Assembly: GCA_000004695.1 (NCBI GenBank)
Contig: CM000155.2
Coordinates: 3,008,001-3,072,000, forward strand
Length of the DNA stretch: 64,000 nt
Direction: 5' to 3'
Source: Dictyostelium discoideum
Lineage: Eukaryota
In this document: piece after piece, positions 584 to 61,510 of the stretch
How the letters are laid out: each line of letters begins with the position of its first letter
How positions within the stretch are numbered: position 1 is the stretch's first letter
Made by a program: the position numbers and the translations under genes
The notes under the pieces: generated by a model
Told to the model about the DNA's origin: nothing
Database searches by the model: none
The model's input: only the letters and a program-made list of their open reading frames with translations

Positions 584-609
584 GATCTATTTTTTGTTTT
601 TGGTAAAAG

Positions 610-681
610 CTCCCTGTCCGGGAATTGAACCCGGGCCTTTCGCGTGACAGGCGAAAATCCTCACCACTAGACCAACAAGGA
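610..681 (-). tRNA. tRNA-Asp (anticodon GUC)
   Basis: The reverse complement folds as a canonical 72-nt cloverleaf. The acceptor stem is TCCTTGT/ACAGGGA, the D arm is GGTCTAGTGGT, and the anticodon loop CCTGTCACG gives GTC. The T arm is GGGTTCAATTCCCGG, and the gene is followed by an oligo-T run. Confidence 0.9.
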
Positions 682-1711: not shown

Positions 1712-3046
1712 ATGAAAATCACAAACAACACCACAAATATTAAGCAACACAAATGCCTACAAAAAATAAGCGAAATTGTGGATAAAACTCAATTAAAAAA
1801 AAAACAATTCAAATACGTCATAAACATCAATCACGAACCAGACGATAAAATAAAAAAAGATTTAGAAAAAAGTTTGGACAAAAAAGATGTTTTAATCAAA
1901 AGTAATAATACATTCAAAATTCTCACAGACAGTATTAGTACAGTAATCTATTTTGTAAATATGTTTGATGCAGAATTAAAAGGACAATTTATAACCACTA
2001 TAAGACCAAAAAATATGTATACAGATTTTGATTGGTATAAATCACTCACAGAAATAGAATGGGTAATAGAAAATGAAGGATGTAAACTAATTAAATCAGA
2101 AATTAAAGGCGAAACTCTAATTATCAAAACAGTGAAAAGAGTCGTAGAAGAATTTGACACTATCATTGAACTAGACAATCTAACATTAATTGGACACTCC
2201 AACAAAGGATGGAGAGATCAAACCTCATTACCAGAAAATCAAGAAGAAAACAAAAATAAAAAACAATCAGATGAACAACAACCACAATCTACATCAGAAC
2301 AAATACCAAAACAAGGAAAAAGAACAATCATTATCCCACCAATCACATCCTCATCTAATGATAAAACATTTATGGCCCTAGATGATACAGCTCAAAAGGT
2401 AATAGAAGCATCACTAGAAAACGTAGATGAACTAACAAGAATAGAGAATGAGATCAATACACAATCGATAAACAATCAAGAAATTAAAACAAAATCAGAA
2501 AAACCTATCGAACCACCATCTCCATACAATACACCAATAAAACAACACGGCGAAACAAAGGGACTAACAACGGAAGAAAAACTTAGAGAGGCAAATGATA
2601 TCTTCGACTTCACCAGCCCAAACACTGATGCAATAAGAAAAATAGAATTCCCACTTTCAATCCCTTCAAATCAATGGTTCTTCTCCTCTCCAATAAAACA
2701 TATCATGAGTTTCAGCCCAACCTATGGTACACCATCGAAAATTATCGATTCACCAAGTAAATTGTTAAACACACCAAAAAAGAAACAACAAGACAAAACA
2801 AACAAGACCAACAAAACACCAGTCAAACCAAAATTGGGTGAATATGGACAAAAAAGCATAAAAACAAAAATGGATGAAGATATAGACAACTTCAACAAGG
2901 AAATTCTAAAACAAATCAATAAATCAAAAAACCCCACAAACACACAAGACCAACAACACAATGAACAAAGTAAAGATCAGTTAGAAGACAAAATAAACCA
3001 GAAACTTCAAAAGGTAGATAAAAATCTACCCCAAATAAAACTATAA
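1712..3046 (+). CDS. TRE5-A ORF1 protein (444 aa)
   Basis: This is an intact ORF. A nearly identical copy (2 aa differences) lies at 58410-59744 on the minus strand. A truncated copy of its first 63 codons occurs at 3444-3636. Confidence 0.85.
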   Translation: MKITNNTTNIKQHKCLQKISEIVDKTQLKKKQFKYVININHEPDDKIKKDLEKSLDKKDVLIKSNNTFKILTDSISTVIYFVNMFDAELKGQFITTIRPKNMYTDFDWYKSLTEIEWVIENEGCKLIKSEIKGETLIIKTVKRVVEEFDTIIELDNLTLIGHSNKGWRDQTSLPENQEENKNKKQSDEQQPQSTSEQIPKQGKRTIIIPPITSSSNDKTFMALDDTAQKVIEASLENVDELTRIENEINTQSINNQEIKTKSEKPIEPPSPYNTPIKQHGETKGLTTEEKLREANDIFDFTSPNTDAIRKIEFPLSIPSNQWFFSSPIKHIMSFSPTYGTPSKIIDSPSKLLNTPKKKQQDKTNKTNKTPVKPKLGEYGQKSIKTKMDEDIDNFNKEILKQINKSKNPTNTQDQQHNEQSKDQLEDKINQKLQKVDKNLPQIKL

Positions 3047-18380: not shown

Positions 18381-19620
18381 AAAAGAACCATCAAAACCAC
18401 TAAAACCTGATAATAAAAATATTGGATAATAAGGTTTCTTTGCGATTTGAGCAGACCATTGCCAAGCAGAAGTTAATCTACCATCAATACAAGAGCCAGC
18501 ATCGAAAAAGTTATCGGCACCACTACCATCGAAAGCGTGTTTAAAGAAATCACAAAGGATGATTTTGGTTAAAGTTTGTGGACCACCAAAGGTGTTTTTG
18601 ATGTAAGCAACTAAATTTGGATCGGTGATCTTTGGAATATATTCAATGGTTAAAACGATTGGACTTAGGATTCTAGAGATTTGAGTGTATTTATCGATGA
18701 AAACCAAAGAGTTTGGAACGTTATGATCACCCAAATGAATAACGGAAGAACCAACCCAATCATCACCAACTTTTTTTTGAGTTTGACGTAGAATACTATG
18801 CATAATTTTACCAACGTTTGGACATTGTTGAATACGATTTAGACCTTGACCAGTGTTTGATAATTGATATCTGTGTCCGCATAAAAGATCAATTTCTGCA
18901 AAGTACCAAAGTTTAAACATATCATGAAGAATATGTTGCCACAAGGAGAGTGATTGATATACATAGTTATATTGTTTACGATGATTGTGAGAAAGACGTG
19001 CACCACCAATGCCATGTTCCAAAGCCAATGAAAAACCTCTCTCTGATTGATTTGGACTAAAGTATTCCTTGAGGAGATGTTTCATTTTCTTGACTGGATC
19101 ACGATTCTCCCTAAGGAATGTATGATTATCACAGATGGAGTAAATACAAACCTCAATCTCCTCTGATTTCAACATTGATGATGAGTAACGACGTGATAAT
19201 GTTTTGATTGCATGTTCCTTTTCACGAATTTCACGTTGAATTTGAGGTCTGGTTTTATTCTCTGCTAAAACCTCACGAGTTGCCAATTCTAACAATGGAT
19301 CCTCTAACAATTTGAGTCCGTTACGTTCATCCAAAAACAAGAAAACGGTTTTCAATGGTTTAATCATATTAAGTCCACTAAGATTTTTCTTTACATCTTC
19401 ATCTGCTGCATCTTGTAATAAATGAATCATTTTACCATATTCAGTTCTCATCTTTGCTGGATTCATAATCTTGTGTCTTCTACCAATTTCAAAAACATTT
19501 TGAAAGAATTCTTCATTTTCAAAGAAATCTTTATTTTCAACTAATTGTTGACCTTTTTTAAAATCACTTTTTTTTTAAAATAATAAAATAAATAAAATTA
19601 GTTTTGAAAATTTATAAATT

Positions 19621-19652
<32 letters not shown>

Positions 19653-20980: not shown

Positions 20981-21193
20981 TTATTTTTTTTTAAATGATT
21001 TACCTTCAGATTGATCTCTTCTTTTTTTTGAAGTTTTGGACGCCACCTTTAACTCGTTTTTGGTATGTTCAGAAGAATGCCCAGAAAATAAATTATATAC
21101 CCAATTAATTATTGCTACAAGTATTATTAGGTTAATCAATAAACCTAATATTAGGGCTGAACTATCTGTTTGAAAGTTTTGTATATAATTCAC
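20981..21193 (-). CDS. small hypothetical single-pass membrane protein (70 aa)
   Basis: The ORF (MNYIQNFQTDSSALILGLLINLIILVAIINWVYNLFSGH..KRRDQSEGK) has locally raised GC and codon structure unlike the surrounding spacer. It has one hydrophobic helix and a basic tail. No homology was recognised. Confidence 0.35.
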   Translation of the reverse strand: MNYIQNFQTDSSALILGLLINLIILVAIINWVYNLFSGHSSEHTKNELKVASKTSKKRRDQSEGKSFKKK

Positions 21194-21302
21194 AATTTTA
21201 TAATGACTAATAAAATATTATTTTTTTTTTTATTTTCTTTTTTTTTTAAAAATTGGAGAACAAAAAAATAAAATAAAAAAAATAAATAAAAATAAAATTA
21301 AT

Positions 21303-21752: not shown

Positions 21753-24700
21753 TTATTTTGACCAAATTACTGGATGTTTTTGATTTGTTTGATTCATGAA
21801 TTGAGTTTGAGAATCTTCATCAATTGGAGAAGAACGTTTTTTATAACGACCATCAGATAACATTTCCCAAGCGTTTGAATCATTACAATAAACATTTATA
21901 ATTTCATAGAGTTGTTTGATGTTATTAGCATCGTCAACAGGAACCATTACTTCGACACGACGTTTAAGATTACGATGTAACCAATCGGCTGATGCAATAT
22001 AAGCTTTTGGTTTGCCATTATTATGGAAACAATAGATTCTTGAATGTTCAAGGAAACGACCAAGAATTGAGATGACTTTAATATTTTCACTGATACCTTT
22101 AATTCCTGGAAGTATTCTACAACGACCTCTAACGACTAGAGTGATTTTCACACCTGCTATACTTGCTTGGTAGAGGGCATTGACCAATCTCTTATCATCC
22201 AAACCATTCATGACGGCATTGATAGTTGCGTCTTTACCTTCTCTGGCGTTCTTTGCCTCGTTATCGATCAATTGGATTAAAGTGGATCTCATATTCATTG
22301 GAGCGATTAAAAGTTTCTTAAAGGAGGATACACGGCTATAGCCAGTGAGGTAGTTGAAAAGGTTGCACATATCTTCACCTAGGTCAGGGTCACAACTGAA
22401 TAGACAAATATCGGCATAGACGTCAGAGGTGCTTGCATTGTAGTTACCAGTGGAGATATTTAAATACTCTCTTAGACCATTCTCCTCCTCACGTACGACC
22501 ATTGCGATTTTAGCATGAGTTTTCAAACCAACCAAACCATAACTTACATGACAACCAGCTTGTTCCAAAAGACGGGCGAATTTTGTATTTTGTTCTTCGT
22601 CACCAGATGCCTTCAAATCCACCAAGACCATAACCTCCTTATGAGAGGCAGCCTCGCAAAGTGCACGAATCAATTGAGAATTTGAGTTTGTTCTATAGAT
22701 TGCGATTTTGATTGCCAATACTTTTGGATCCTTAACTGCACTTTCAATAAAGAATTGAACAGAAGAATTGAAGCTTAGATAAGGTAAATTCACCAATAGC
22801 TCACCTTTTCTAATGACAGAAAAGACGTCCTCTGATGGATATTTTGCCAAGTTTACTAATCTACTTGGGATGTGGGGTACCCAAGGTTGGAATTTGAGAT
22901 GTGGTAAGTTTAATTTACAAAGTTCAAAGAGATCTTGTAAACCCAATGGACCATTGATGACGTAGACATCATAGGCATCCAATGCCAATTGTGTCTTTAA
23001 CATATCCAATATCTCTGCGGGCATATTATGACTGACCTCTAATCTAACCATTGGTGCAAACTTTCTCTTATGTAATTCGGTTTTAATTAATTCCAAAAGA
23101 TCATTTGCCTGATCCTCTCCACTAAGCTTCAAATCATTGTGACGTGATACACGGAACAATGACTTTGTCAAGATTTTAGTGTTTGGGAAGAGTGTATCCA
23201 AATTTGCCAATATTATCTCCTCCATTGGTATGATTGAATAGTTGGAACGTTGTTTAATATGTACAAAACGTGGGATTCTTTGAGGCACTTTAATACGTAC
23301 GAATCTGGTGGTATCTTCGTCATGTTTCAAAAGGACCGCTATGTTCAATGAGAGATTACTAAGATTAGGGAATGGATGACCTGCATCGACCACCAATGGT
23401 GTCATCAATGGGAAAACATGTTGTAAAAAGAAACCACGTAATTGAATTTTCTCTGGTTCTGTTAAATCGGAATACTTTATAATGAATACATTATTATTTG
23501 AAAGTTCTGGTGCTAATATATTCATATAGATATTATAAATCTCATTGATTAAATTTCTTGTTGTATTCAATACCATATTAATATAATGTTCCTCTGGTTT
23601 CAATGTTTTTCTAGTAGAAATATAACCTAATCTTAACTTTAATGCACGTTTACAAAAATACATATCCAAATTTTGTGATGTAATTGCAATGAATCTAACA
23701 CGTTCTAATATTGGATAAGTTGGATTATATGCTTCATAAAGTATACGATAAAAGTAAATTAATTCTGATAATTCCCTATTAAAAAACATTCTTGAACCAC
23801 TTAATTGTAAAACTTTAATATCAATTGGTATTTCTGATTCTGGTATACTTTGTTGTTGTTGTTGTTGCTGTTCTGCTAAACTACCATTACCATTTGGAAT
23901 TATTGATGATGATGATAATCCTGAAATTAAGGGTGAAGTTGAACCATCACCACCTGATGAAAATGGTTTACCAATCATTGTTGATGATTTAAAATCATTG
24001 TTATTATTATTATTTGTATTTTGAATTAAATTATTAAATAAATTATCAACATCTAAAATTGTATGTTTTACAGATGGTACAATGAAATTATTTTCACTAT
24101 CAACTATATCTTGACAATAGGATGGATCTGGTAAGACATTTGCTAATGGTGGTGCATCCCATGAATTTAATGATGTAAATTTAGATTTTGTTGAATCTGA
24201 ATTACAATTACCATTACTATTACTATTACTATTATTATTATTACTACTACTACTACTACTACTACCACTACTAATGTCATTTTTCAAAGGTTCGGAAATT
24301 GGTTGTGGATTTTGAACAGTTAGGACATTTGATGTACCTAATTCACTTAAACCTAACATTGATGATAATTTAATTGGTTGAACTGGTGATTTTGATGGAT
24401 TCACTGTTGATGATTTTACAAATTCAGTTGGTGAGAATAATGTACCAGATTCCATTAATTGACAATTTTGAACTGGATTTGCTGTGGTTTCTTTATTTTT
24501 AGATTTTGATTTTGATTTTGATGATTTTGATGATGATTTTGATGAACGTTTCTTTTTTTTATCATTTGGATTTGGAATTAATTTACCATTGCCACCATTT
24601 GATTCTGCTGCTGAATCTTCATCTTCTTCATCAAATGATGATGATTCTTCATCATAATCATCTTCGAAATCAACTGGACATTCTTGTGATATTTTATATC

Positions 24701-24914
24701 TATGTAATTCCATTGCTGCTGTTGATGATGATGATCCAGTATGTTCATCATCACTTTCTTCACCACTTGTTGAAGTAGTTGTTGTAGTAGTGGTAGTGGT
24801 GGAGGTGGTGGTGGTGGTTGATTCTTTATTATTACTATTAATTTTGAGTTTATTTAATTCTTCTTCATCAAATTCATCTAATATTTTATTTTCCATTTTT
24901 GAGTTAGTTATCAT
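21753..24914 (-). CDS. ppk1: polyphosphate kinase 1, bacterial-type PPK1 (1053 aa), with a ~370-aa low-complexity N-terminal extension
   Basis: The C-terminal ~680 aa are collinear with bacterial PPK1. Matching segments include RMFFNRELSELIYFYRILYEA, PLVVDAGHPFPNLSNLSLNIAVLL, LEVSHNMPAEILDMLKTQL, GLKTHAKIAMVVREEENGLREYLNISTGNYNASTSDVYADICLFSCDPDLGEDMCNLFNYLTGYS, LVVRGRCRILPGI and GRFLEHSRIYCF. These include the PLD-like phosphohistidine motifs. The gene is a single exon. Confidence 0.9.
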   Translation of the reverse strand: MITNSKMENKILDEFDEEELNKLKINSNNKESTTTTTSTTTTTTTTTSTSGEESDDEHTGSSSSTAAMELHRYKISQECPVDFEDDYDEESSSFDEEDEDSAAESNGGNGKLIPNPNDKKKKRSSKSSSKSSKSKSKSKNKETTANPVQNCQLMESGTLFSPTEFVKSSTVNPSKSPVQPIKLSSMLGLSELGTSNVLTVQNPQPISEPLKNDISSGSSSSSSSNNNNSNSNSNGNCNSDSTKSKFTSLNSWDAPPLANVLPDPSYCQDIVDSENNFIVPSVKHTILDVDNLFNNLIQNTNNNNNNDFKSSTMIGKPFSSGGDGSTSPLISGLSSSSIIPNGNGSLAEQQQQQQQSIPESEIPIDIKVLQLSGSRMFFNRELSELIYFYRILYEAYNPTYPILERVRFIAITSQNLDMYFCKRALKLRLGYISTRKTLKPEEHYINMVLNTTRNLINEIYNIYMNILAPELSNNNVFIIKYSDLTEPEKIQLRGFFLQHVFPLMTPLVVDAGHPFPNLSNLSLNIAVLLKHDEDTTRFVRIKVPQRIPRFVHIKQRSNYSIIPMEEIILANLDTLFPNTKILTKSLFRVSRHNDLKLSGEDQANDLLELIKTELHKRKFAPMVRLEVSHNMPAEILDMLKTQLALDAYDVYVINGPLGLQDLFELCKLNLPHLKFQPWVPHIPSRLVNLAKYPSEDVFSVIRKGELLVNLPYLSFNSSVQFFIESAVKDPKVLAIKIAIYRTNSNSQLIRALCEAASHKEVMVLVDLKASGDEEQNTKFARLLEQAGCHVSYGLVGLKTHAKIAMVVREEENGLREYLNISTGNYNASTSDVYADICLFSCDPDLGEDMCNLFNYLTGYSRVSSFKKLLIAPMNMRSTLIQLIDNEAKNAREGKDATINAVMNGLDDKRLVNALYQASIAGVKITLVVRGRCRILPGIKGISENIKVISILGRFLEHSRIYCFHNNGKPKAYIASADWLHRNLKRRVEVMVPVDDANNIKQLYEIINVYCNDSNAWEMLSDGRYKKRSSPIDEDSQTQFMNQTNQKHPVIWSK

Positions 24915-58113: not shown

Positions 58114-59819
58114 TTATAGAAAGTACTGAGTGAATTATTGTATTTTTTGAGATGTTTAGGAAGTTCTATTGCGGGTGTTGATGATGATTTGTGACACCCC
58201 TTGTCCTGTTTTATCAATTGGTGCGTGGTGTGTTATTTTGTTTTTATATTGTTGATTTATTGAGTAAATTTTATTTGTTTTTATATTTGTTTCAGTTAGA
58301 AGTGCTGCGTCCAGCTTGTTGTTGTCTAAAACGGTGTTTATTATGCTGGCAGATTGGATGGTGTTGGATCCTTGGACGTTCCAAACACCTATTCTTATTG
58401 TGTTTTTCTTTATAGTTTTATTTGGGGTAGATTTTTATCTACCTTTTGAAGTTTCTGGTTTATTTTGTCTTCTAACTGATCTTTACTTTGTTCATTGTGT
58501 TGTTGGTCTTGTGTGTTTGTGGGGTTTTTTGATTTATTGATTTGTTTTAGAATTTCCTTGTTGAAGTTGTCTATATCTTCATCCATTTTTGTTTTTATGC
58601 TTTTTTGTCCATATTCACCCAATTTTGGTTTGACTGGTGTTTTGTTGGTCTTGTTTGTTTTGTCTTGTTGTTTCTTTTTTGGTGTGTTTAACAATTTACT
58701 TGGTGAATCGATAATTTTCGATGGTGTACCATAGGTTGGGCTGAAACTCATGATATGTTTTATTGGAGAGGAGAAGAACCATTGATTTGAAGGGATTGAA
58801 AGTGGGAATTCTATTTTTCTTATTGCATCAGTGTTTGGGCTGGTGAAGTCGAAGATATCATTTGCCTCTCTAAGTTTTTCTTCCGTTGTTAGTCCCTTTG
58901 TTTCGCCGTGTTGTTTTATTGGTGTATTGTATGGAGATGGTGGTTCGATAGGTTTTTCTGATTTTGTTTTAATTTCTTGATTGTTTATCGATTGTGTATT
59001 GATCTCATTCTCTATTCTTGTTAGTTCATCTACGTTTTCTAGTGATGCTTCTATTACCTTTTGAGCTGTATCATCTAGGGCCATAAATGTTTTATCATTA
59101 GATGAGGATGTGATTGGTGGGATAATGATTGTTCTTTTTCCTTGTTTTGGTATTTGTTCTGATGTAGATTGTGGTTGTTGTTCATCTGATTGTTTTTTAT
59201 ATTTGTTTTCTTCTTGATTTTCTGGTAATGAGGTTTGATCTCTCCATCCTTTGTTGGAGTGTCCAATTAATGTTAGATTGTCTAGTTCAATGATAGTGTC
59301 AAATTCTTCTACGACTCTTTTCACTGTTTTGATAATTAGAGTTTCGCCTTTAATTTCTAATTTAATTAGTTTACATCCTTCATTTTCTATTACCCATTCT
59401 ATTTCTGTGAGTGATTTATACCAATCAAAATCTGTATACATATTTTTTGGTCTTATAGTGGTTATAAATTGTCCTTTTAATTCTGCATCAAACATATTTA
59501 CAAAATAGATTACTGTACTAATACTGTCTGTGAGAATTTTGAATGTATTATTACTTTTGATTAAAACATCTTTTTTGTCCAAACTTTTTTCTAAATCTTT
59601 TTTTATTTTATCGTCTGGTTCGTGATTGATGTTTATGACGTATTTGAATTGTTTTTTTTTTAATTGAGTTTTATCCACAATTTCGCTTATTTTTTGTAGG
59701 CATTTGTGTTGCTTAATATTTGTGGTGTTGTTTGTGATTTTCATTTTATTTTCTTTCTATCTTTTTTATTTTTCTTTAAAAAGTTAAAAATCTGGAAATT
59801 TTCTAATTAACTTGGTTCC

Positions 59820-60582: not shown

Positions 60583-60665
60583 CCGGCTTTGGCGCAATGG
60601 TAGCGCGATTGACTGTAGTATTGAAAGTGATCAATCGGTTGCTAGTTCGAATCTGGCAAGCCGGA
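60583..60665 (+). tRNA. tRNA-Tyr (anticodon GUA) with an 11-nt intron
   Basis: The acceptor stem is CCGGCTT/AAGCCGG and the D-stem is GCGC/GCGC. The anticodon stem-loop is ATTGA-CTGTAG-[TATTGAAAGTG]-A-TCAAT. The intron sits after position 37, exactly as in other eukaryotic tRNA-Tyr genes (CTGTAG|intron|A). The T-arm is GCTAGTTCGAATCTGGC. The gene is followed by T4 and A8. Confidence 0.85.
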
Positions 60666-60693
60666 CTTTTAAAAAAAATAATTTTATAATCAC

Positions 60694-61410: not shown

Positions 61411-61438
61411 TGATCTCTGCCTTGGGTTTTAAAAAAAG

Positions 61439-61510
61439 CTCCCCATTCGGGAATCGAACCCGAGGTACCAGTGTGAAAGACTAGAGTGTTACCGACTACA
61501 CCAATGAGGA
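61439..61510 (-). tRNA. tRNA-Glu (anticodon UUC), second copy
   Basis: Its reverse complement is identical to the 45148-45219 gene and is flanked by poly(A/T). Confidence 0.9.

Follow-up and report, generated by a model that had tools for sequence, protein, structure and literature searches.

The window, a stretch of 64,000 nucleotides of Dictyostelium discoideum DNA, carries an intact ppk1 gene for a bacterial-type polyphosphate kinase (PPK1). Taken jointly, the evidence is best explained, with a probability that we put at about 90%, if this is the nuclear ppk1 of the species (DdPPK1), an old gene of bacterial derivation that has been inherited vertically since its acquisition and has kin among the PPK1s of other eukaryotes. 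The ORF (21753..24914, minus strand) opens with an ATG and runs for 1053 codons with no in-frame interruption. It is most likely the same gene as the published DdPPK1 (UniProt Q54BM7; PMC3680246), which is likewise nuclear and intronless and encodes a bacterial-type PPK1 with an N-terminal extension of ~370 aa. The gene itself is already known and matches the published description of DdPPK1; the initial annotation had called it a documented Dictyostelium peculiarity, in agreement with the literature (PMC3680246, PMC10657179, PMC8885430). Published work on PPK1 in Dictyostelium covers its origin by horizontal gene transfer, development and extracellular polyphosphate (polyP) signalling (PMC3680246, PMC10657179, PMC8885430, PMC10056890). 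The amoebae use the polyP made by PPK1 in development, for the fitness of their spores and to signal cell density extracellularly, and ppk1 is a textbook case of a eukaryote having domesticated a bacterial gene. DdPPK1 is reportedly also covered in Zhang et al. 2005 and 2007.

In protein searches, the nearest database proteins were the orthologues from D. citrinum and D. firmibasis, two close relatives of D. discoideum, with identities of 91% and 88%, respectively. The window protein itself is absent, as an exact sequence, from a collection of 15 billion sequences. Its features are as follows:

21753..24914, minus strand: complete, intronless ppk1 CDS, a single ORF of 1053 aa plus stop
23832..24914, minus strand: N-terminal extension, aa 1-361, without bacterial counterpart and mostly predicted to be disordered
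24612..24764, minus strand: acidic/serine island, aa 51-101 (EESDDEHT ... ELHRYKISQECPVDFEDDYDEESSSFDEEDEDS), conserved in the 11-orthologue amoebozoan alignment
24492..24560, minus strand: Lys/Ser-rich basic tract, aa 119-141 (KKKKRSSKSSSKSSKSKSKSKNK), with a basic tract at the same position in dictyostelid orthologues
24297..24440, minus strand: island, aa 159-206 (LFSPTEFVKS ... MLGxxxLGxSNxLxVQNPQPI), conserved in the orthologue alignment
24000..24170, minus strand: island, aa 249-305 (APPxxNVLPDPSYC ... NFIVPS ... ILDxDNLF), conserved, with a predicted fold
23787..23846, minus strand: pre-N-domain segment, aa 357-376 (IPxDxKVLQLSGSR), with a predicted helix at 364-373 and the L(-8)..S(-5) motif
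23481..23786, minus strand: PP_kinase_N domain (Pfam), aa 377-478; Glu384 replaces a near-universal bacterial Trp
22920..23450, minus strand: PP_kinase middle (head) domain (Pfam), aa 489-665
22332..22829, minus strand: PLD-like C1 domain (PP_kinase_C_1, Pfam), aa 696-861, carrying His800, Ser770 and Asn819
21807..22313, minus strand: PLD-like C2 domain (PP_kinase_C, Pfam), aa 868-1036, carrying His957

Catalytic core and active-site residues

A complete four-domain PPK1 spans aa ~377-1046 and exceeds the cut-offs of the Pfam and NCBIfam models by which we defined the family (PF13089, PF02503, PF17941 and PF13090; TIGR03705). The Pfam domains lie collinearly over aa 377-1036 with E-values of 8e-21 to 1e-66, and their bit scores against the respective gathering scores are 74.8/23.8 (N), 194.7/31 (middle), 196.1/25.7 (C1) and 223.7/25.8 (C2); TIGR03705 ("polyphosphate kinase 1") reaches 698.9 bits against an equivalog cut-off of 465.85. 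This domain order, together with the TIGR03705 match, upholds the original description of a bacterial-type PPK1 whose C-terminal part is collinear with its bacterial counterparts. Residues 375-1013 align with E. coli PPK (1XDO) at E 8.6e-97. The AlphaFold model has a confident core, most of it above pLDDT 90 (434 residues at >=90), and Foldseek returned target-normalised TM-scores of 0.86-0.91 to 1XDO, 9UUH, 9URJ, 9URI and 2O8R_A.

Both catalytic histidines are retained in columns invariant across a 70-sequence alignment: His800 (motif GLKTHAK) corresponds to the phospho-acceptor His435 of E. coli, and His957 (motif FLEHSR) to the ATP-contacting His592 (roles in 10.1101/630129). They fall in the PLD-like C1 and C2 domains, respectively; PLD-type catalytic motifs had been recognized at the outset. 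Two further active-site positions, each all but invariant in bacteria, differ from the bacterial pattern. Asn819 occupies the site of E. coli His454, which is His in 241 of 264 homologues, other dictyostelids among them; Ser770 occupies the site of E. coli Arg405, where Arg stands in 70/70 Chloroflexota-like and nearly all other bacterial proteins. E. coli His454 was reportedly found essential by Kumble et al. 1996. Orthologues occur with one residue or the other, and activity has been reported for the D. discoideum enzyme; we therefore regard the residues at these two sites as clade-specific variants and not as defining features of PPK1. Given the two substitutions, the catalytic mechanism may differ in detail from that of bacterial PPK1.

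From homology and residue conservation we infer that the C-terminal ~690 residues would act as a complete PPK1 that builds polyP from ATP, the gamma-phosphate passing to His800 in a tunnel between the two PLD-like domains and from there to the growing chain. Amoeba polyP is made via Ppk1 (PMC8885430), and reduced polyP in a ppk1 mutant is mentioned in PMC3680246, which cites Zhang 2005 for it.

Conserved islands within the N-terminal extension

The first ~370 aa had initially been characterized as poly-T/S/N/Q/E sequence with no bacterial counterpart; the latter point stands, whereas the extension is not simply of low complexity. No Pfam family matches aa 1-376, and pLDDT is below 50 across almost all of aa 1-252 and again at aa 306-346. 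In the alignment of 11 amoebozoan orthologues, low-complexity runs are interspersed with islands conserved in all dictyostelids, a positive answer, for these islands, to whether the extension is conserved beyond D. discoideum; LFSPTEFVK, for instance, is invariant in nine of the 11. Block-mean pLDDT rises to 58-89 over aa 253-305, where a strand (277-279) and a helix (294-302) are predicted. With conserved motifs and this predicted element of ~50 aa, the extension does not fit the term "repeat insertion" applied to it earlier. A nuclear-localization or polyP-binding role for the basic tract at aa 119-141 is speculation. We also considered aa 51-141 as a PASK-type (polyacidic/serine/lysine) region but set this aside, since acidic and basic residues form two separate tracts there.

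The L(-8)..S(-5) motif just ahead of the N domain is present in 8/10 amoebozoan, 63/69 Chloroflexota-like and 2/140 other bacterial proteins, and is also shared by other eukaryotic PPK1s. Judging from pLDDT alone, the aa 253-305 element and the helix at aa 364-373 are likely to sit against the catalytic core. The extension of DdPPK1 is said to be needed for activity and localization. An HMM profile of the islands, intended to reveal whether the extension derived from a host gene, returned no match in a collection of 5.8 billion proteins, though known orthologues (local E<=1e-26) were likewise missed. Overall, the ~360 residues would represent a eukaryotic addition, mostly a disordered low-complexity spacer with short motifs conserved across Dictyostelia.

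Genomic setting, age and origin of the gene

The genes on both sides of ppk1 are eukaryotic and intron-split: downstream lies a B-box+DUF2009 gene, and upstream a DUF2053 gene and splicing factor SF1, followed by a mitochondrial carrier and a poly(A)-binding protein. A GT..AG intron at about 19567-19652 was confirmed by comparison with the D. citrinum protein. The intron-containing housekeeping neighbors noted initially are borne out. Gene order around ppk1 is identical in D. firmibasis; in D. purpureum the neighbors are kept but rearranged, and in C. fasciculata only Mob1 is kept. The window gene is intronless as claimed, but the D. purpureum and C. fasciculata orthologues carry introns at differing positions (PMC3680246), making this a species-specific trait; the introns would represent lineage-specific gains after acquisition.

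The codon usage of ppk1 is host-like, consistent with its earlier description as AT-rich: its GC content is 33% and its GC3 of 0.225 lies within the range of the other window ORFs (0.089 to 0.345), with 0.298 in the catalytic part and 0.089 in the extension. We considered and rejected the catalytic GC3 as a relic of bacterial origin, because the GC3 hump at aa 501-950 (0.26-0.50) is out of step with the boundary of the bacterial-derived part (GC3 in the PPK N domain is 0.16-0.18), is missing in the D. firmibasis and D. purpureum orthologues, and involves unconserved four-fold sites. Repeats alone also fail to account for the contrast between extension and catalytic part, as the islands (0.061) lie even below the spacers (0.108). 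Purifying selection on ppk1 shows in the comparison with D. firmibasis: the catalytic parts agree at 96-99% of amino acids (98-99% over aa 376-950), yet 33-41% of the four-fold sites are different.

A full-length protein search, dominated by low-complexity words, yielded only 10 amoebozoan matches and was redone with the catalytic part. Orthologues then appeared in all dictyostelids sampled as well as the protosteloid amoeba Clastostelium, with catalytic-part identities of 62-98% across Dictyostelium, Polysphondylium, Tieghemostelium, Heterostelium, Cavenderia, Acytostelium and Clastostelium recurvatum; in searches that included EukProt, amoebozoan matches were confined to dictyostelids and Clastostelium. 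The acquisition would thus predate the radiation of Dictyostelia and probably also the split from Clastostelium, with vertical inheritance since then suggested by the host-like codons and the partly conserved gene order. By this comparative evidence the acquisition is old, not recent; a recent or private transfer is unsupported because orthologues and partly conserved gene order extend across Dictyostelia, and orthologues to Clastostelium.

The homologues comprise 16,057 representatives; the named matches listed are mostly bacteria with a few archaea, and the eukaryotes among them are amoebozoans and red or green algae, a patchy distribution. The best non-amoebozoan matches, at 47-49% identity, are, where named, Chloroflexota, Caldilineaceae or Litorilinea, and cyanobacterial PPK1s stand at 44-46% among the matches listed. 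A genome-contig scan gave, among the matches listed, mostly relatives at 39-45% (cyanobacteria, Actinomycetota, Acidobacteriota), the 47-49% group being missing there. These identities point to Caldilineae-type Chloroflexota as the closest bacterial relatives, as opposed to the cyanobacteria reported in 2013.

All trees were built by neighbour-joining (NJ) distance methods, and both eukaryotic groups sit on long branches in them. Amoebozoan PPK1s cluster with Galdieria-type and marine-eukaryote PPK1s at NJ bootstraps of 96-99% under three distance corrections, a support that drops to 71-77% when the data are Dayhoff-6 recoded or cut down to the slowest 60% of sites. As immediate relatives the window protein has the PPK1 of Clastostelium, P0142 (a marine contig protein) and the Galdieria-type PPK1s. 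Ser at the Arg405 site occurs in 10/10 amoebozoan and 6/6 Galdieria-type proteins and in P0142, against 0/70 Chloroflexota-like proteins and 2% of other bacteria. Glu at the Trp site of ELSWL occurs in all amoebozoan and nearly all Galdieria-type proteins and in <=2% of bacteria. Deletions of 1-2 residues near window aa 431, 553 and 667 are also shared. We use these three characters, all of which the window protein has, to define a provisional subclade of Amoebozoa plus the Galdieria type. The contigs of two metagenomic members, P0254 and P0171, carry eukaryotic neighbors. Deeper nodes are unstable: the grouping of eukaryotes with a Chloroflexota-like clade received 81%, 64% or 32% and the monophyly of all eukaryotic PPK1s 7%, 7% or 43%, depending on treatment, and no immediate bacterial sister group of amoebozoan PPK1 was found in the NJ trees. 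A single origin common to the amoebozoan, Galdieria-type and marine-eukaryote PPK1s would be the most likely account. Of the horizontal acquisition and domestication originally proposed, bacterial ancestry and a host-like gene hold, whereas placement in a eukaryotic clade speaks against a transfer that was recent or private; bacterial ancestry stands because that clade, recovered in the phylogeny suggested as a check, is itself nested among bacterial sequences.

At slightly short of even odds, we tentatively read these data as a eukaryote-specific PPK1 subfamily that arose from one old Caldilineae-like acquisition, spread by eukaryote-to-eukaryote transfer or differential loss, and bears a docking module at aa 253-305. 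The subfamily so drawn has lost Arg405 and the Trp, shares the deletions, and includes cyanidiophyte red algae and uncultured marine eukaryotes. If this is true, docking of aa 253-305 on the core could account for the extension's reported need in activity. The classical account, in which the social-amoeba ancestor took ppk1 directly and privately from bacterial prey, is the origin given in reviews (PMC10657179, PMC8885430). It would make the Galdieria grouping a long-branch or convergence artefact, for which the NJ-only trees, the long branches and the drop to 71-77% under recoding or slow sites leave room. We nevertheless consider it unlikely: the Ser and Glu replacements are all but confined to the two eukaryotic groups, the shared deletions are harder to explain by convergence, and the 96-99% bootstraps accord with Whitehead et al. 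2013, where eukaryotic PPK1s also cluster together (PMC3680246).

Clearly less probable still is a PPK1 that dates back to the last eukaryotic common ancestor (e.g. via the mitochondrial ancestor), descended vertically and was lost in most lineages. The occurrence of PPK1s in Amoebozoa, red algae, green algae/streptophytes and uncultured marine eukaryotes, along with the 43% for all-eukaryote monophyly at slow sites, fits such descent; yet on the full data 89% of replicates place green-lineage PPK1s with the Chloroflexota-like clade and not with other eukaryotes, the nearest bacteria among the matches listed are Chloroflexota and cyanobacteria rather than alphaproteobacteria, and the restriction of amoebozoan matches to dictyostelids and Clastostelium would require very many independent losses. 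The ORF lacks introns, and its catalytic part is 45-49% identical to bacterial proteins, which might suggest bacterial contamination, a misassembly or a pseudogene in decay; this is already refuted by context and selection data: the ORF lies on one continuous stretch with intron-containing eukaryotic genes on either flank, and it is host-like in GC and GC3, preceded by an extension whose islands recur in 11 amoebozoan orthologues, embedded in a gene order fully or partly kept in three other genomes, and intact under the purifying selection described above.

Comparison with known polyphosphate-synthesizing enzymes

E. coli PPK1 (1XDO/1XDP) shares with the window protein the four domains, ~30% identity, a target-normalised TM-score of 0.86 and the equivalents of His435 and His592. 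It lacks the extension, and its Arg405, His454 and ELSWL Trp are replaced in the window protein by Ser, Asn and Glu, respectively. The Caldilineae-type Chloroflexota enzymes (Litorilinea aerophila WP_141608549.1; "Caldilineaceae bacterium" MAGs) are closer, at 47-49% identity and with the L(-8)..S(-5) motif, but Arg405 and the Trp are retained in them, the shared deletions are missing, and their N-terminal tails are unrelated and span only 40-200 aa. The Galdieria-type/marine PPK1s (Galdieria phlegrea EP00871_P001200; metagenomic P0171, P0225, P0254 and P0221; MMETSP P0192) form the sister clade in NJ trees and, like the window protein, have long N-terminal extensions; the dictyostelid island HMM had no match in these, hence the extensions are unrelated. 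At least two of them (P0171, P0225) carry a C-terminal NUDIX domain, which the window protein lacks.

These comparisons correct reviews that still limit eukaryotic PPK1 to Dictyosteliida, and would shift its closest bacterial kin from cyanobacteria to Caldilineae-type Chloroflexota. Together with the clade-specific active-site substitutions and extension motifs, which are open to mutagenesis, these points have a modest specialist interest. In yeast and many other eukaryotes, VTC4 does the same job as amoeba Ppk1, making polyP from ATP (PMC10657179). Amoeba Ppk1 has no SPX domain (PMC8885430; Pfam scan), whereas VTC4, unrelated to PPK1 in fold and mechanism, is a triphosphate-tunnel enzyme that works in a membrane complex under SPX-domain regulation.

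Identity and genomic setting of the gene

Analysis of the minus strand at 21753..24914 recovered one ORF of 1053 codons with an ATG start, in which Pfam placed the four PPK1 domains in the correct order (E-values 8e-21 to 1e-66):

aa 377-478: PP_kinase_N
aa 489-665: PP_kinase middle domain
aa 696-861: C1 domain
aa 868-1036: C2 domain

The NCBIfam profile TIGR03705 (polyphosphate kinase 1) scored 698.9 bits against a cut-off of 465.85, and 1XDO (E. coli PPK) matched aa 375-1013 at 8.6e-97, in an alignment equating His800 with E. coli His435 and His957 with E. coli His592; neither column varies in an alignment of 70 sequences. The AlphaFold model, for which that alignment served as input, reaches a pLDDT of at least 90 for 434 residues, with target-normalised TM-scores of 0.86-0.91 against solved PPK1 structures. 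The closest full-length matches are from D. citrinum (91%) and D. firmibasis (88%); together with the DdPPK1 architecture they assign the window to D. discoideum or a very close relative. Domains, TIGR03705, 1XDO, catalytic histidines and predicted fold all agree, and the combined evidence is beyond chance: the gene is real, already known, and was correctly identified as PPK1 in the initial annotation.

This uninterrupted ORF sits, as had been noticed from the sequence, between intron-split, ordinary eukaryotic genes, in a window of 23% G+C. Downstream, a B-box/DUF2009 gene has its Pfam profile broken between ORFs, and one GT..AG intron (~19567-19652) is confirmed by the D. citrinum protein, which reads across it. 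Upstream lie genes for a DUF2053 membrane protein, with its N-terminal part necessarily encoded by another exon, for splicing factor SF1 (likewise split), a mitochondrial carrier and a poly(A)-binding protein. D. firmibasis has the gene order of the window (Mito_carr, Mob1, two unannotated genes at the SF1 and DUF2053 positions, PPK1, B-box/DUF2009), D. purpureum still has PPK1 near DUF2053, SF1, Mob1 and Mito_carr, and Mob1 still adjoins it in Cavenderia fasciculata. The intron-split eukaryotic neighbours and the gene order in other dictyostelids rule out contamination, and ppk1 is therefore a resident nuclear gene.

Its composition is host-like. The whole gene has a GC3 (G+C at third codon positions) of 0.225, the N-terminal extension 0.089 and the catalytic part 0.298, within the range of other long ORFs in the window (0.089-0.345) and alongside 0.19-0.34 for the conserved domain-coding stretches of its neighbours. 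A GC3 hump at aa 501-950 (22065-23414) reaches 0.26-0.50, above any other ORF in the window, between flanks of 0.04-0.18, and the C. fasciculata orthologue has a similar pattern. We ruled out a donor relic, as the hump ignores the bacterial/eukaryotic boundary and is missing in D. firmibasis (0.15-0.24) and D. purpureum (about 0.2), and the four-fold (synonymous) sites of ppk1 are not conserved. Against D. firmibasis, the catalytic part retains 96-99% protein identity with 33-41% of four-fold sites changed, which indicates strong purifying selection.

The interval separating ppk1 from the B-box/DUF2009 gene contains a short ORF, 20981-21193 (-), that lacks its own ATG and encodes a hydrophobic stretch (…SSALILGLLINLIILVAIINWVYNLF…). 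Part of the fused D. citrinum gene model P0001 matches it at 83% identity (tblastn HSP 20996-21211), and the ORF is possibly a conserved exon that has escaped annotation or a gene for a small membrane protein. Elsewhere, two 444-aa ORFs, 1712-3046 (+) and 58410-59744 (-), are 442/444 identical, lie in opposite orientation ~55 kb apart, and are each 1-2 kb from a tRNA gene (tRNA-Asp, tRNA-Glu; 609-681 (-) and 61438-61510 (-)). The pair had no Pfam match and resembles two copies of a TRE5-type, tRNA-gene-targeted retroelement ORF, which would be in keeping with D. discoideum. At 60583-60666 (+) ARAGORN also called a tRNA-like gene of unassigned identity whose anticodon has four bases (gtag), perhaps a pseudogene or a tRNA interrupted by an intron.

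The N-terminal extension and other domain additions

Alignment of 11 amoebozoan orthologues qualifies the earlier description of the extension as low-complexity: T/S/N/Q runs of freely varying length are present, but they alternate with islands kept across Dictyostelia, and part of the extension is predicted to be structured. The conserved elements are:

aa 51-101: EESDDEHT and ELHRYK...DYDEESSS.DEED
aa 119-141: Lys/Ser basic tract
aa 159-206: LFSPTEFVKS (invariant in 9/11 orthologues), then MLGxxxLGxSNxLxVQNPQ
aa 249-305: APPxxNxLPDPxYC...NFIVPS....ILDxDNLF
leading into the N domain: EIPxDxKxLQLSGSR

In the AlphaFold model nearly the whole extension is predicted to be disordered (pLDDT <50 across virtually all of aa 1-252 and over aa 306-346), with higher values at aa 253-305 (block-mean pLDDT 58-89; strand 277-279, helix 294-302) and aa 350-375 (pLDDT 70-91; helix 364-373). 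We infer that these two segments may pack on the catalytic core. Such packing would fit the reported need of the extension for activity: Zhang et al. 2007 reportedly found the 370-aa extension of DdPPK1 to be required for activity and localisation. The extension matched no Pfam family, and a profile search with the islands for copies elsewhere was uninformative because it missed even the known orthologues.

Among the nearest representatives, the bacterial PPK1s P0160, P0137, P0140 and P0226 carry varied N-terminal fusions (CYTH, GNAT acetyltransferase, calcineurin-like phosphoesterase, membrane domain DUF4956). CYTH-type N-termini occur in about 20 representatives of ~930-1080 aa, grouped as alike by eye, with the domain scan made on P0160 only. 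Additions at the N-terminus of PPK1 are therefore frequent beyond the eukaryotes as well. At the opposite end, the Galdieria-type proteins P0171 (locus L087) and P0225 have a C-terminal NUDIX domain, which the window protein lacks. NUDIX enzymes include polyphosphate and diphosphoinositol-phosphate hydrolases, so such a fusion would combine polyP synthesis with a possible module for breaking polyP down.

Relatives and rare characters

Searches with the catalytic part recovered orthologues from all dictyostelid genera that were sampled (65-98% identity), together with one from the protosteloid amoeba Clastostelium recurvatum (62%; 952 aa, with its own extension). The next tier (47-49%) is a large set of 720-900-aa proteins, the named ones from Chloroflexota, Caldilineaceae and Litorilinea aerophila; among the matches listed, cyanobacteria fall below it at 44-46%. 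Bootstrapped neighbour-joining trees (264 sequences, 674 columns) included P0142 (775 aa, encoded on a Tara Oceans contig), six Galdieria-type proteins (Galdieria phlegrea, an MMETSP transcript and four metagenomic proteins) and green-lineage PPK1s from Mesostigma, Netrium, Ostreococcus and Chloropicon. Of the four metagenomic contigs, the two that were checked have eukaryotic genes next to PPK1, among them those for a longin/synaptobrevin SNARE and an RSN1_7TM channel.

Bootstrap support by treatment (full data; Dayhoff-6; slowest 60% of sites)
Dictyostelia + Clastostelium: 100% (full data)
Dictyostelia + Clastostelium + P0142 + six Galdieria-type: 96-99%; 71%; 77%
All eukaryotes + 70 Chloroflexota-like proteins: 81%; 64%; 32%
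Green algae + Chloroflexota-like: 89%; 61%; 22%
All eukaryotic sequences monophyletic: 7%; 7%; 43%

Independent rare characters back the eukaryotic clade. Serine replaces E. coli Arg405 (Ser770, 22605-22607) in 10/10 amoebozoan and 6/6 Galdieria-type proteins and P0142, against 0/70 Chloroflexota-like proteins and 2% of other bacteria; Glu replaces the Trp of ELSWL in 10/10 amoebozoan and 5/6 Galdieria-type proteins and P0142; and deletions of 1-2 residues near window aa 431, 553 and 667 are common to the clade. Asn at E. coli His454 (Asn819, 22458-22460) is found in the window protein, D. firmibasis, D. citrinum and 6/6 Galdieria-type proteins, with His in other dictyostelids and in 241/264 homologues. 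An L(-8)..S(-5) motif before the N domain (8/10 amoebozoan, 4/6 Galdieria-type, 3/4 green, 63/69 Chloroflexota-like, only 2/140 other bacterial proteins) supports a larger grouping of this clade with the green-lineage and Chloroflexota-like proteins.

The amoebozoan and Galdieria-type clade is rated probable, since only distance methods were used and the eukaryotic branches are long; the deeper order of the green-lineage, Chloroflexota-like and amoebozoan/Galdieria-type branches is unstable across treatments. P0142 (loci L001/L002), a PPK1 encoded without introns on a small contig of marine origin, is the nearest relative of the dictyostelid enzymes outside Amoebozoa, at bootstraps of 72-75% on full data and 31-37% after recoding or slow-site filtering; it has the Ser770 and Glu384 equivalents, and its contig neighbours gave no Pfam matches.

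Age of the transfer and comparison with published PPK1s

The horizontal acquisition initially proposed holds as to bacterial ancestry but is not recent: orthologues across Dictyostelia and in Clastostelium make it ancient. Since PPK1s of other eukaryotes are the nearest relatives of this gene, private capture from prey bacteria is not the route that the data favour most. Introns lie at different positions: in D. purpureum the intron follows aa 574, in C. fasciculata aa 564 of that species' protein. This is consistent with a gene that began without introns and acquired them separately in different lineages. The initial interpretation was thus largely right, with corrections to the extension, the age of the transfer and the closest relatives. 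The gene itself is of low interest; Ser770 (whole clade), Asn819 (D. discoideum group and Galdieria type) and the extension motifs are small, testable leads.

As had been recognised, this is a documented Dictyostelium feature: like the published DdPPK1 of D. discoideum (UniProt Q54BM7), the window gene is intronless and, in common with PPK1s of other eukaryotes, encodes a long extension at the N-terminus (PMC3680246). Whitehead et al. 2013 grouped eukaryotic PPK1s together, with N-terminal extensions, counted 0, 1 and 4 introns in D. discoideum, D. purpureum and P. pallidum, and dated the transfer before dictyostelid speciation (PMC3680246); later reviews also hold that Ppk1 was acquired from bacteria (PMC10657179, PMC8885430). 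Our results agree on ancestry and age, and disagree with the statement in one of these two reviews that Ppk1 is confined to Dictyosteliida among eukaryotes. In place of the cyanobacteria named in 2013 (PMC3680246), the nearest bacterial relatives are here Caldilineae-type Chloroflexota, which were barely sampled at that time.
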